From: a virus
Reading direction: 5' to 3' (one strand)
IMG/VR virus record: IMGVR_UViG_2597490295_000013
Coordinates: 85,285 to 127,832 of that record
Length of the DNA stretch: 42,548 nt
Shown here: positions 1 through 34,498 of the stretch, piece by piece
Layout: each line of letters starts with the position of its first letter
Numbering within the stretch: position 1 is the stretch's first letter
Notes under the pieces: model-generated
The model's input: the letters and a program-made list of their open reading frames with translations, nothing else
Told to the model about the DNA's origin: nothing
Database searches by the model: none
Position numbers and translations under genes: made by a program

Positions 1-251
1 CTAATTTTTTTAACATCTATTATTTTGTTTTTTTCAAAAGCTCCTAATAAAGCTTGTTCTAATTTAAAATCATCAAAGGAAGTTACAGTTTCTAATGCCA
101 TTATAACCGCAGTTAATTCCATTCTATTATTTGTTGTTTTCTTTTCATACCCCATATATCCGATATCATCAATACAAAATCCCCATCCACCTTCTCAAGT
201 TCCATTTTGAGAACATGCTCCATCTGTATAAATTTCTATTATATTATTCAT
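1..251 (-). CDS. rnhA: Ribonuclease HI (partial, runs off window start; one in-frame TGA at 195-197)
   Basis: Manual translation MNNIIEIYTDGACSQNGT(W)EGGWG...TTNNRMELTAVI matches RNase HI motifs. ATG overlaps the upstream gene's TAA. Missing from the ORF track because of the TGA. Confidence 0.85.
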
Positions 252-1372
252 TAATCCTCCAATACTATGATTACATTTTGTTTTGCTCTTGTTATTGCTG
301 TATATAATTGTCTTGCATGATTTTTTCTATATGACATTTCATCGAAAATAATAATATTATTAAATTCGCTACCTTGTGCTTTATATACAGTTATTGCTCA
401 ACCGTATTCAAAGTGATTAACTCCTTGTCTGTCATGTTTAAATTTTTTCCCATTAAAAGGATTCCCACTAACTCTTAATCCAGAATAAGTATCTTTTCTA
501 TTAAAGGTTGGTGAAAAATAAAGATCGAATAAATTATTAAATCCTATTACTGCACTATTGTTTGCGTACCCTATCATTCCATTAATTAAAGGCACATCGC
601 TTAACCGGCTACCAATAGTTCAATCATTTTTTATACAAACTAATTTGTCTCCTTTTACAGGATATTTTGATTTACGTTTTAGGATTTGTTCTCTAAAATA
701 ATTATTTATATTATGTCTAGTTACGTTTTTACCGCATATAATTTGATCTGCGGCTTCCATTGATTCAACTCGTAATATATCTCTTTTAATTACTGCAACA
801 TTTTTTCCTCTAAATGGCTTAAGAATTTTACCTTCTCTTATTTGCATACTCCAATATATAATTTCGCTATCTCTTGATTGTCTATGAATCTCATTTAAAA
901 AGACATGTGGACTATTCAGCAATCCATTATCATCTCCTTCAACAGGAGGTAATTGGAATGGATCTCCTAATCCTATAACTTGAATTTTATAAGATGCGAG
1001 GTCTTTAAGCAATTTTTCAGGAACCATTGATATCTCATCAATTACGATAAGTTTTATTCCTGGATCTAGTCTTGTCTTCCGATTAAATGTAATTTCACCT
1101 GTTCTTTTATTCTTCCTTGTTTCATAAATTAATCTATGAATAGTAGTAGCAGGCAATCCTCGGTCTCTAAGAACGAGGCTTGCTCTACCTGTGTAAGAAA
1201 CAAAAACAGTGTTTTGCATAAGATTCATCTCTTCTATAATATAGCGAATTAACGTAGTCTTCCCTGTTCCAGCAAAACCGGCGACGATAGTAACACGTTC
1301 TCGCGCATCTAACCGTTTAATAACAGTTCTCATTGCATTTTTTTGTTGTCCTGTTAATACTATATCAGTCAT
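251..1372 (-). CDS. RecD/Dda-like SF1 DNA helicase, 373 aa (TGA=Trp at 620-622 and 398-400)
   Basis: Walker A GFAGTGKT, DEISM, GDPFQLPPV. Reading through TGA joins ORFs 620..1372 and 398..595 and gives C-terminal motifs FEYG(W)AITVYKAQGSEF and LYTAITRAK, ending at TAA 251-253. Confidence 0.9.
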
Positions 1373-1391
1373 TATTTACTCCTATTTTATA

Positions 1392-1568
1392 TTATTTACT
1401 TATTTCTTCTTTATAAAGTATCGCTTTTATCATAGCATCATATAAAGTCTTGCCATAAAAAGTCCCTTGATTAGTTACAACTCTAGCAATTCCTTTTCCT
1501 TGAGAAAAGAATATTAAATCATTTTCTAATGCTTTCATTGTTATCATTAATTTTTTTGGTATATTCAT
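1392..1568 (-). CDS. Hypothetical protein, 58 aa
   Basis: AGGAG RBS, ATG at 1568, TAA at 1392. Fills the intergenic gap. Confidence 0.55.
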   Translation of the reverse strand: MNIPKKLMITMKALENDLIFFSQGKGIARVVTNQGTFYGKTLYDAMIKAILYKEEISK

Positions 1569-1579
1569 AATTTTCTCCT

Positions 1580-32603: not shown

Positions 32604-32902
32604 GCTCCCTCCTTATTTTTATATTGTTTTAACATTGACTTAAAAAGTGTATTCTCTTTATCAACTATTACAAAAATTTCATGTTCCATCAATGGACAAA
32701 TACAAAATTTAAATCTTGCTAATTCTGTATCATGTTCTCTGTATTTTTTCTTTAATTCTTTTATTGCACCTTTGATAGTTCTTTCAGTTGCAATTATAAA
32801 TATATATTGACTTTCTATTAATTCTATTAATCGTTTAAAACTTTCATTATTCATTCCTTTAAAAGGTTTAGACGTAGTTGTTACTGTAACATTCTTATCC
32901 AT
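32585..32902 (-). CDS. Hypothetical protein between gyrB and gyrA
   Basis: 105 aa ORF with RBS. Confidence 0.6.
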   Translation of the reverse strand: MDKNVTVTTTSKPFKGMNNESFKRLIELIESQYIFIIATERTIKGAIKELKKKYREHDTELARFKFCICPLMEHEIFVIVDKENTLFKSMLKQYKNKEGAWIEIT

Positions 32903-32910
32903 AATATCTC

Positions 32911-33459
32911 CTAACTGTCTATGTTCGCATATTGAGCGTTATCTACAATAAATTGTCTACGTGGTGCGATCTTAGTCCCCATCAAGACAGTAAACGTTTC
33001 TTGCGTTTCTTCTTCATCCTCTATTTTGAATTGAATAAGTTGTCTATCATTTGGGTTAATTGTTGTTTCCCATAATTCTTCTGGGCTCATTTCACCAAGT
33101 CCTTTAAGATAACCTATTGATGCACCTTTATGAGTCCTCGCAAATTCACTAGCTTCTTTTTGTGTATATAAATAAGTTTTTTTATTCCTATAAGTTGCAA
33201 TATACAATGGAGGAACTGCTGCATAAACATACCCTTGCTCAAATAATGGTCTCATATAGTTAAATAAGAAAGTTAAAAGTAAAGTTCTAATATGGCTACC
33301 ATCTACATCAGCATCAGTAAGAATTATAATTTTATCATATCTAAGTTTAGTTATATTAAATTCTTTTCCAATCCCACAGCCAAAAGCAGTAATCATAGCG
33401 TTTATTTCATTATTTTTTAATAGTTTTGAAAGGTCATTTTTTTGGCTATTAAGAATTTT
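32911..33459 (-). CDS. gyrB: GyrB exon 2
   Basis: Begins [28 protein letters not shown]. Confidence 0.92.
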
Positions 33460-34498
33460 CGTGTTAGTCCCATGTTTCCATGGGCACTGACTATATCTTA
33501 CTCTAAGAATTGTTAATTCTATTATAGAGCACTCCGTTTCGAATTGCGTATCAATAGCAACCCTACTCCCGGTCTAACCCAGGATAGTCGATACAAGTAT
33601 TATTTTATATGTTTATAACTTTTTCTAAGAACTATACTACGCATTGGATTATATGTTACTTTGTATATACAAGCTAGTTCAGTTGTGGTTTTTTCTTTAT
33701 TGTCATATAATCTTCTTATTTCTAATATTTCTTCTTTAGAGAATCTTAATACTCCAGTTTGAGCATGTTTTATTTTTGGAATATTCCCTACTGTTCTATA
33801 ACTTACTCCATGGATAATATTTCTAAAAGTATCTTTACTAGGGTACAACTCTTTATAATCTTTTCAAATTTGAGCAGGAGTTTCACCGTCAATATACCTT
33901 TGTCTAATTTTTATAACTTCTTTATTAGACAGTTTTGCTCTTGGATGATTTTGATCATTTAAAGCTTTTGTTTCCTTCAATGTATTTAATCTTTTATCCT
34001 TTACTTCTTTTGAAGATAATATTTCTTTCGCTACAAAATTTCCACCTTTAGTTGAATTGTATCCATTTTTAAAACTATTATAAAAAGATATTCAATATAT
34101 TTCTTTTTCATTTAATTCTTTTATTGAGCATTCTTCTAAAATTTGAATTTCAAAATTTTCAAGTCCATATTTTCTTAAAGCTTGATAAAATTTTGTATTA
34201 TAGCAACAATTCTTTGGATTATTAAATGCATATTTATGTTTGTTACTAATTCTTTTTTCAATATTAATTGATTGCCCAATATATCTTTTTCCATTTGTTT
34301 TATTTCTAAAACAATATATACCTATCATTATATTACTCCTTTGATAATAAAGCATATAACATATAAAATAATCATTACTCACGGGATTAACTTCACCTAA
34401 ACAAATTTTAACATATTTGTGTAATGGTCAGCCTTCCCCGTTAGCCACTAAAGTGACCCCGGTGATTACCGGTTAGAAGTGTGAGGGCAAAATTACTT
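33460..34498 (-). mobile_element. Group I intron in gyrB, 1039 nt
   Basis: Exon ends in U and intron ends in G. P1 AGGGU/GCCCU with U.G pair, P10 AATTTT/AAAATT, P7 elements GACTA and AAGATATAGTC. Splicing restores LPLKG-KILN. Confidence 0.9.
33600..34328 (-). CDS. Intron-encoded GIY-YIG homing endonuclease, 242 aa (TGA at 34092, 33864)
   Basis: MIGIYCF...RYIGQS, EKEIY(W)I, GYNSTKGG; in frame with ORF 33600..33848. Confidence 0.88.

Follow-up and report, generated by a model that had tools for sequence, protein, structure and literature searches.

Probable leaky reading of TGA as tryptophan in part of the genes of an SPβ-like phage with a UCA-anticodon tRNA

The stretch of DNA analysed here (the window) comprises 42,548 nucleotides of IMG/VR record IMGVR_UViG_2597490295_000013, bases 85,285-127,832, which is the final third of the SPβ-like phage contig C53 (127,832 bases), assigned to genome bin G000. 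In this phage, TGA codons interrupt otherwise intact genes and almost certainly stand for tryptophan. We propose, with a probability of about 0.7, that they are read by leaky, time-gated suppression, likely by a phage tRNA with a UCA anticodon, against the active release factor 2 (RF2) of a host that probably uses the standard code. The window encodes helicases, RecJ, DHFR, ThyA, ligase, gyrase and a tRNA array; outside it, C53 encodes portal, tape measure, tail, endolysin, a putative sigma factor, DNA polymerase III alpha, ribonucleotide reductase and resolvase. No terminal repeat was found on the contig, and full genome length is therefore unproven.

TGA codons and the residue they stand for

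Genes were called under code 4 with our own codon-model caller, not with Prodigal. The original prediction had reported about 30 in-frame TGAs; our calls contain 32, distributed over 21 of the 59 window genes, and one of them falls in a doubtful open reading frame (ORF) of 40 codons. The motifs quoted there, with TGA as an asterisk, are all present on the minus strand: VRPV*HDG, WWDD* and CAYSTT* in ThyA, KRPA* in the ligase, QLNGS* and KI*AKSDLG in DnaB, and YGYK*KY and EIY*I. Minus-strand ORFs ending in TGA had been said to continue in frame, and this is the case for 17 of 17 gene-like code-11 ORFs of the window (ATG start, at least 35 amino acids and coding score >6), with continuations of 4 to 492 codons, the shortest three (4, 8 and 15 codons) being the least certain. 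An annotation under table 11 would therefore break 21 of the 59 called genes. The 58 genes located wholly in the window stop at TAA (40) or TAG (18), as a consequence of calling under code 4. Contig-wide, 176 genes were called, with 104 in-frame TGA and 255 TGG codons; removal of 4 TGA codons of three genes which appear to end at TGA leaves 100 sense TGAs.

Coding density, taken simply as coverage by ORFs of at least 150 amino acids, had been suggested as a check, and the gain is present: coverage of the window increases from 0.48 under code 11 to 0.60 under code 4, while opening TAG instead lifts it only to 0.485. For the whole contig the values are 0.499, 0.652 under code 4 and 0.52 with TAG opened, a density gain above the 5% used to define code-4 phages on contigs of at least 100 kb. 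The three largest other contigs of G000 gain about 0.01 under code 4. Bin contigs C1, C2, C8, C66 and C72 were considered as recoded on account of coverage gains of 0.06-0.14, but were rejected, their long genes being mostly TGA-free. Internal stops within the alignments to the closest relative, G001 (20,002 codons), were 56 TGA, 5 TAA and 0 TAG. Furthermore, the contig occurs in four sequencing runs of one sample, labelled marine sediment and possibly its source, and contigs of two runs of this sample show 0 differences over window positions 16500-36000 at a depth of 82-87, which argues against assembly error, yet is not independent support.

To assign the residue, all called proteins, with X at each TGA, were aligned to related viral loci, and 61 of the 104 sites passed a local-identity filter. 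The majority residue is Trp at 45 of them, Tyr at six and Gly at none; the 392 aligned cells contain 193 Trp, of which 17 correspond to TGA in the relative, along with 73 Tyr, 40 Phe, 3 Cys and 1 Gly. Among the 19 sites of the window, 10 show a Trp majority and six a Tyr majority. The claim that many of these positions are Trp or aromatic in their families is thus borne out, and the random or Gly-dominated alignment that had been named as contrary evidence was not seen. G001, which shares 73-79% identity with the phage in capsid, helicase and ThyA, has TGG at 34, TGA at 18 and other codons at nine of the 61 sites, and in turn shows TGA at 14 of 141 TGG sites of this phage, so that swaps occurred in both directions. 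Ahead of the first TGA the identity to G001 is 66%, and behind it 62%; as it holds, decay is excluded. In ThyA, across 120 homologs, site 99 is Trp in 119 and site 161 in 115, while at site 31 Tyr (107) prevails over Trp (13), and in two solved ThyA structures W faces all three TGA sites.

Distribution and context of TGA and the tRNA genes

Recoding is partial, and the genome-wide opal reassignment originally proposed does not stand. In the 16 genes transcriptionally upstream of the UCA tRNA there are 0 TGA and 16 TGG, leaving aside an ORF within an intron, against 46 TGA and 71 TGG in the downstream replication genes (p=0.001). With timing assigned from gene content, the TGA:TGG ratio is 11:94 in early and 91:161 in middle and late genes (p=4e-7), and TGA is found in 23 of 41 genes of the plus-strand late block. 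Outside the window, TGA appears to serve as the stop of three early-arm genes, two of them with the next ATG within 2-4 bases and one with TAA after it. Hence the rule that true stops are TAA or TAG applies to the window only. Reading TGA as Trp instead of invoking pseudogenes or Gly is upheld, whereas its extension to the whole genome is not.

TGA makes up 29% of the Trp codons, while Lys, Glu and Gln codons are 85-97% A-ending by block. By comparison, the TGA share is 79-95% in three mycoplasma phages and 92-96% in two mycoplasma chromosome stretches, so that the dominance of TGA throughout seen in the mycoplasma type is absent here. The TGA:TGG ratio is 4:31 in seven major virion genes, 12:2 in six nucleases and 79:130 in the comparison set, groups chosen post hoc. 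Among replication genes, DnaE and ribonucleotide reductase have four TGAs each, the ligase and ThyA three each, and DnaB two. TGA sites common with G001 are concentrated in genes g66-108 (odds ratio 14.7; 2.7 for Lys and 3.1 for Glu), where all 3 sites of the putative sigma factor and all 4 of the resolvase are shared, and no clustering is seen in g109-149 (odds ratio 0.5), the boundary being post hoc.

The base following TGA shows a strong bias. T follows only 4 of the 100 sense TGAs, where within-gene shuffling among Trp sites gives 13.0 (p=5e-5); in the window it follows 1 of 32 TGA and 17 of 67 TGG codons. T follows other A-ending codons in 20%, AGA, GGA and CGA in 17-25%, and off-frame TGA in 30-38% of cases, therefore this is not a word effect. 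When Ser comes next, AGY is used in 5 of 5 cases after TGA and in 5 of 18 after TGG. At Trp sites common to the phage and G001, TGA is found in either phage at 4 of 22 sites with T after and at 62 of the remaining 132 (p=0.018). When one gene caller is applied to all, T after TGA amounts to 2/80 in this phage, 2/38 in G001, 59/292 in the recoded phage G053, 53/206 in the mycoplasma chromosome stretches and 14/133 in the mycoplasma phages; in 15 other recoded loci pooled it is 45/186, by a cruder ORF method. Bacterial TGA stops prefer T/U at the +4 position, which is attributed to RF2 contact and favours termination by RF2 (PMC6764699), and 67 of 129 TGA stops in the bin have T at +4. Literature searches, judged by titles and abstract openings, listed none that deals with the +4 base or with open-stem tRNAs of recoded phages; supplements could contain such work.

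Of the comparison phages, G053 is a 160-kb code-4 phage with TGA at 58% of Trp codons and one fully paired UCA tRNA. Another candidate, G050, was set aside as not clearly recoded (coverage 0.78 vs 0.77). G003 is a TAG-recoded relative, and ARAGORN called no CTA tRNA in the regions examined.

The UCA tRNA (74 nt) is the first gene of an array of 25 tRNA genes, 24 of which were called by ARAGORN, and lies behind two consensus promoters with extended TG. It shows A1-U72, G73, a four-nucleotide variable loop and an encoded CCA, and keeps G18-G19 and the T loop; however, its anticodon stem is open at 27:43 and 31:39, and two U-U mismatches lie in the acceptor stem. ARAGORN labels it as a selenocysteine tRNA, a label that derives from the anticodon, and there is no match to Rfam tRNA-Sec. 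G73 and A1-U72 are Trp identity elements. G73 of UCA tRNAs has been noted as Trp-related, and in E. coli systems Trp was inserted by all 13 phage UCA tRNAs analysed, suppression tracking RF2 strength (PMC12636597). By these features the tRNA likely reads TGA as Trp. No match to release factor (PF00472) or tryptophanyl-tRNA synthetase (TrpRS) family (PF00579) was found on C53; matches occurred only on bacterial contigs.

The array also contains a tRNA-Trp(CCA), missed by ARAGORN and found with Rfam, which has the same three-pair anticodon stem and, as read from the sequence, U19 and A56 in place of the usual G19-C56 pair. Among the 25 phage tRNAs, 27:43 and 31:39 are both unpaired only in these two. 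In 26 ARAGORN-called UCA tRNAs of other viral loci, 20 are fully paired, six have one open pair and none has both (three pairs are duplicates, and the D loop was fixed by the search pattern); in the 11 other viral Trp(CCA) tRNAs the two are likewise never open together. The UCA tRNA aligns best with Trp(CCA) among 24 tRNAs (score 33.5 vs 30.5), with 47 of 74 positions identical, a count tied with Gln and Val, which weakly suggests that it derived from the phage Trp(CCA) tRNA. Free-energy folding was uninformative, as neither the UCA tRNA nor the controls, Trp(CCA) and Gln, folded into a cloverleaf.

Other features of the array stand apart from these two genes. The Leu tRNAs (TAG and TAA; 22133-22209 and 24597-24672) are 76-77 nt long, without the long variable arm usual for Leu. 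Met and Cys tRNAs were not called within 16866-29891, and a tRNA-Ile with TAT anticodon is present. Three TGA-free genes on the minus strand, encoding the peptidyl-tRNA hydrolase PTH2 (16441-16827, at the array end), a DUF2828/DUF7788 protein (26936-28453, inside the array) and an Rnl2-type RNA ligase (41620-42528, upstream), possibly form a tRNA repair and recycling set.

Proposed mechanism, host and alternatives

Codon positions, alignments, tRNA genes and codon statistics are observed, and from them we infer expression, charging, competition, timing and host code as follows. Early genes, which lack sense TGA, would be made at once by host ribosomes. The two host-type promoters would then allow transcription of the tRNA array, with the UCA tRNA first, and charging by host TrpRS is proposed because the phage lacks genes for TrpRS and release factors. 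The genes for replication, sigma factor, packaging, tail and lysis could then be read through TGA, while host RF2 would stay active and compete with the UCA tRNA. Suppression would likely be incomplete, and selection would therefore keep TGA rare, hold it out of the major virion proteins and remove it before T. The enrichment of TGA in nucleases and at shared sigma-factor sites may time their expression.

The bin itself uses code 11 and has RF1 and RF2; however, it is probably not the host of the phage, and binning was probably incidental, since the bin (93% complete) shows no Mur ligase or MraY match and the phage encodes two peptidoglycan amidases. In addition, the capsid gene was found in 0 of 40 related bacterial genomes, and no long near-identical match joins C53 to the rest of the bin. 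The nearest named ThyA homologs belong to clostridial-type anaerobes: Senegalia, Clostridium, Peptostreptococcus and Helcococcus. The bin, which also has the phage-like contigs C2, C66 and C72, measures 2.1 Mb, against 1.0-1.7 Mb in 12 genus relatives. In a helicase tree of 49 rows, for which selection by length left 48 distinct rows from 62 loci and in which phAss-1 is absent and the deep forks are partly open, the phage and G001 form one long branch with 100/100 support. None of the other loci shows in-frame TGA in the aligned segments and many show TAG, which suggests, in a tree without rooted test, that TGA recoding arose separately in this branch.

Several observations weigh against leaky suppression by the UCA tRNA. 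Without G001, the majority residue is Trp at only 12 of 33 TGA sites (Tyr at seven), compared with 40 of 73 TGG sites, and TGA therefore sits at less constrained Trp positions; moreover, 43 of the 104 TGA sites were not alignable. The UCA tRNA has the lowest score of 21 Rfam tRNA matches, and with four mismatches in two stems it could be decaying. DNA patterns found no copy of it in a relative (0 matches in viral and metagenome contigs), which leaves its conservation unsupported. Likewise, searches with gyrA in metagenome contigs and with the DUF2828 protein in viral contigs yielded no relative's copy of the region, which G001, a fragment, lacks together with gyrA. With a wider DNA pattern 37 loci were obtained, none from a close relative, and ARAGORN called a UCA tRNA in 26 of them. 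The nuclease, virion and shared-site gene groups were picked after the data had been seen. Other recoded phages (G053 and the 15 loci) do not avoid T after TGA, whereas mycoplasma phages are low too (p=0.012 versus other A-ending codons); mycoplasmas are not known to have RF2, and part of the effect may therefore not need it. Four sense TGA-T sites do exist, one at residue 139 of 774 of ribonucleotide reductase. Finally, the RF2 of the bin says nothing direct about the real host.

Among the alternatives, we give hardly any credence to pseudogenes, to errors of sequencing or to a reading of TGA as Gly (code 25), Cys or selenocysteine. The selenocysteine label of ARAGORN and the 16 of 61 sites with a non-Trp majority would fit them; they are already largely refuted by the near absence of Gly (1/392 cells) and Cys (3/392), the swaps between TGA and TGG in both directions, the conservation past the first TGA, the lack of TAG breaks, the identical run contigs, and a UCA tRNA of 74 nt that lacks both a long variable arm and an Rfam tRNA-Sec match. 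A code-4 host matched by its phage is also very improbable. It would accord with the 22 of 27 cultured code-4 phages that infect Mycoplasma or Spiroplasma (PMC11210395), but the TGA share of 29% against 79-95% in mycoplasma phages, the TGA-free early block, the apparent TGA stops, the peptidoglycan amidases and the clostridial-type ThyA neighbours contradict it.

Two other explanations accept TGA as Trp and differ on how it is read. The main decoder could be the open-stem Trp(CCA) tRNA or host tRNA-Trp, by near-cognate reading, with the UCA gene minor or decaying. Weak reading of this kind would account for both the context bias and the small share of TGA, and the phage Trp(CCA) surpasses the UCA tRNA in Rfam (46.3 vs 36.6) and has 27:43 open, a change that in E. 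coli tRNA-Trp(CCA) raises UGA readthrough about 2.5-fold (PMC13092985). We consider this unlikely, as that assay covers the opening of 27:43 alone and not 31:39, genes with 3 to 8 TGAs need fairly efficient reading, and the UCA tRNA keeps G18-G19, T loop and CCA end and opens the array behind two consensus promoters, where the border of TGA use lies. Somewhat less likely still is a full late code switch, through an unrecognised RF2 inhibitor or host shut-off, with the small TGA share and the +4 bias as leftovers of a leaky phase, recent or earlier, or of other cause. Most small early genes lack a known function, the replication-module TGA sites are not common with G001, as expected of recent drift, and mycoplasma phages show a milder T deficit; however, no inhibitor was identified, the bias appears in both phages though most sites differ, and the deficit at shared Trp sites before T (4/22 vs 62/132) also opposes a full switch. 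Leaky suppression, likely by the UCA tRNA, remains the reading we prefer. More tentatively, and with doubt, UGA could have a context-weighted dual meaning with RF2 intact, UGA-purine being Trp and UGA-U tending to stop; the open-stem UCA and CCA tRNAs would then share the reading, and conserved TGAs in the putative sigma factor, resolvase and homing endonucleases would act as a dosage-dependent timer.

Gene content and comparison with known systems

Features of the window are listed in Table 1. Upstream of the UCA tRNA, TGA occurs in a single ORF, the GIY-YIG ORF of the gyrB intron. The intron shows no Rfam family match, even at E up to 1, and its group-I-like class is judged from its ends. 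Outside the window, the presumed large terminase is split in two ORFs around an HNH endonuclease with 3 TGA and 0 TGG (C53 32744-35347), while G001 has one 597-aa ORF at the matching place. A gene with the Pfam Radical_SAM domain lies at the strand switch (C53 73745-74851), not seen there in G001; presumably it resembles lysine 2,3-aminomutase and EF-P modification enzymes. GC skew changes near 73.7 kb of C53, but tracks the coding strand. The tape measure is one 1947-aa ORF here and two ORFs (1039 and 859 aa) in G001 (35226-40953).

Table 1. Features of the window, in window positions
Feature	Position	Strand	Remarks
RNase H, 5' part, runs off window	1..251	-	TGA at 197
RecD-like AAA/UvrD_C helicase	251..1372	-	TGA at 622, 400
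RecJ-like DHH nuclease	1580..3313	-	TGA at 3061
Putative primase	3316..4449	-	TGA at 4173, 4062; no Pfam match, inferred from place beside DnaB
DnaB-like helicase	4469..6028	-	TGA at 4822, 4612; 36% to SPβ YorI
ORF without assigned function	6028..6351	-	TGA at 6129; residues aligned there not Trp
Thymidylate synthase ThyA	9421..10284	-	TGA at 10194, 9990, 9804
GIY-YIG/NUMOD endonuclease	10825..11730	-	TGA at 10842, four codons from end; G001 also TGA
ATP-dependent DNA ligase	11742..12887	-	TGA at 12794, 12191, 12089; G001 TGG at all three
Tail-tip-like ORF	13864..14277	-	TGA at 13893, sole window TGA with T after
RNase H-like ORF	15536..16081	-	TGA at 15862; G001 TGG
Small ORFs and D12-class adenine methyltransferase (19984-20715)	16102..20932	-	TGA at 16233, 16188, 17322, 17592, 17556, 17550, 19593, 20145, 20887; no aligned homolog passing filter
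Array of 25 tRNA genes, small ORFs between	16866..29891	-	24 by ARAGORN, Trp(CCA) by Rfam
tRNA-Trp(CCA)	22370..22443	-	Rfam 46.3 bits
Two small ORFs within tRNA array	25864..26815	-	TGA at 26187, 26683
UCA-anticodon tRNA, likely opal-reading tRNA-Trp	29818..29891	-	ARAGORN; Rfam RF00005 36.6 bits
Second consensus promoter, 11/12, extended TG	30079..30107	-	before UCA tRNA; consensus match only
Consensus sigma-70/A-type promoter, 12/12, extended TG	30160..30188	-	between gyrA and UCA tRNA; consensus match only
Upstream block, presumed early: RNA ligase, SLT, M16 peptidase, gyrB, gyrA, others	30246..42528	-	0 TGA, 16 TGG apart from intron ORF
Group-I-like intron in gyrB	33460..34498	-	junction between LPLKG and KILN vs bacterial gyrB; exon ends T, intron ends G
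GIY-YIG endonuclease ORF in gyrB intron	33600..34328	-	TGA at 34094, 33866; 0 TGG

Phages reading TGA as Trp are already known, as had been stated originally and is confirmed by Borges et al. (bioRxiv 10.1101/2021.08.26.457843), where about a third of code-4 phages of standard-code hosts carry an opal suppressor tRNA; the avoidance of T after TGA is less familiar. The present phage resembles these in the alignment of TGA with Trp, the opal tRNA gene, recoded late genes and early genes readable in the standard code. As in the code-4 and Agate phages of that preprint, there is no phage TrpRS or release factor, GC is low, recoding is partial, and relatives use codes 11 and 15. With the Agate lineage it shares the size of about 127 kb and a TGA-rich intron endonuclease in an early gene. 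It differs in its recoded replication genes (46 TGA:71 TGG), which the Agate examples of Figs 3-4 leave in standard code, a trait that the text calls variable, and in the label of the runs containing it, marine sediment and not gut; in the parts of the preprint consulted, neither +4 U avoidance nor open-stem tRNAs come up.

The Jade code-change module consists of RF1, TrpRS and opal tRNA, and the first two are not on C53. The UCA tRNA with G73 proposed to insert Trp is common to Jade/AP1, where RF2 competition was shown in E. coli for the AP1 TrpRS:tRNA-UCA pair (PMC12636597); here, however, it heads a tRNA array beside gyrA instead of lying in a lysis cassette. The phage phAss-1, of the proposed Phassvirus, is similar in its capsid protein (36.5%), large tRNA array and size range of 125-140 kb, but recodes TAG to Gln (PMC10607447), and the helicase query gave no match in it. 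Bacillus phage SPβ, whose YorI shows 36% identity to the helicase, has no annotated recoding. An open 27:43 pair in a genome with UGA as Trp recalls the tRNA-Trp(CCA) having a 4-bp anticodon stem in Blastocrithidia and bacteria, and in the bacteria it co-occurs with a UCA tRNA as here, in 65 of 70 cases (PMC13092985). The phage tRNAs differ in that 31:39 is also open, in both the CCA and the UCA tRNA, and in their carrier, the word 'phage' being absent from the main text of Fakih et al. (PMC13092985).

On how a phage can alter the code of an RF2-containing host without supplying a release factor or a synthetase, this genome offers a measurable trace of incomplete suppression (scarce TGA, +4 U avoidance and virion depletion), absent from other recoded phages tested, together with unusual tRNAs. 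Furthermore, it adds a separate TGA-recoded branch, with a non-gut habitat label, to an SPβ-like group whose sampled members otherwise use code 11 or recode TAG.

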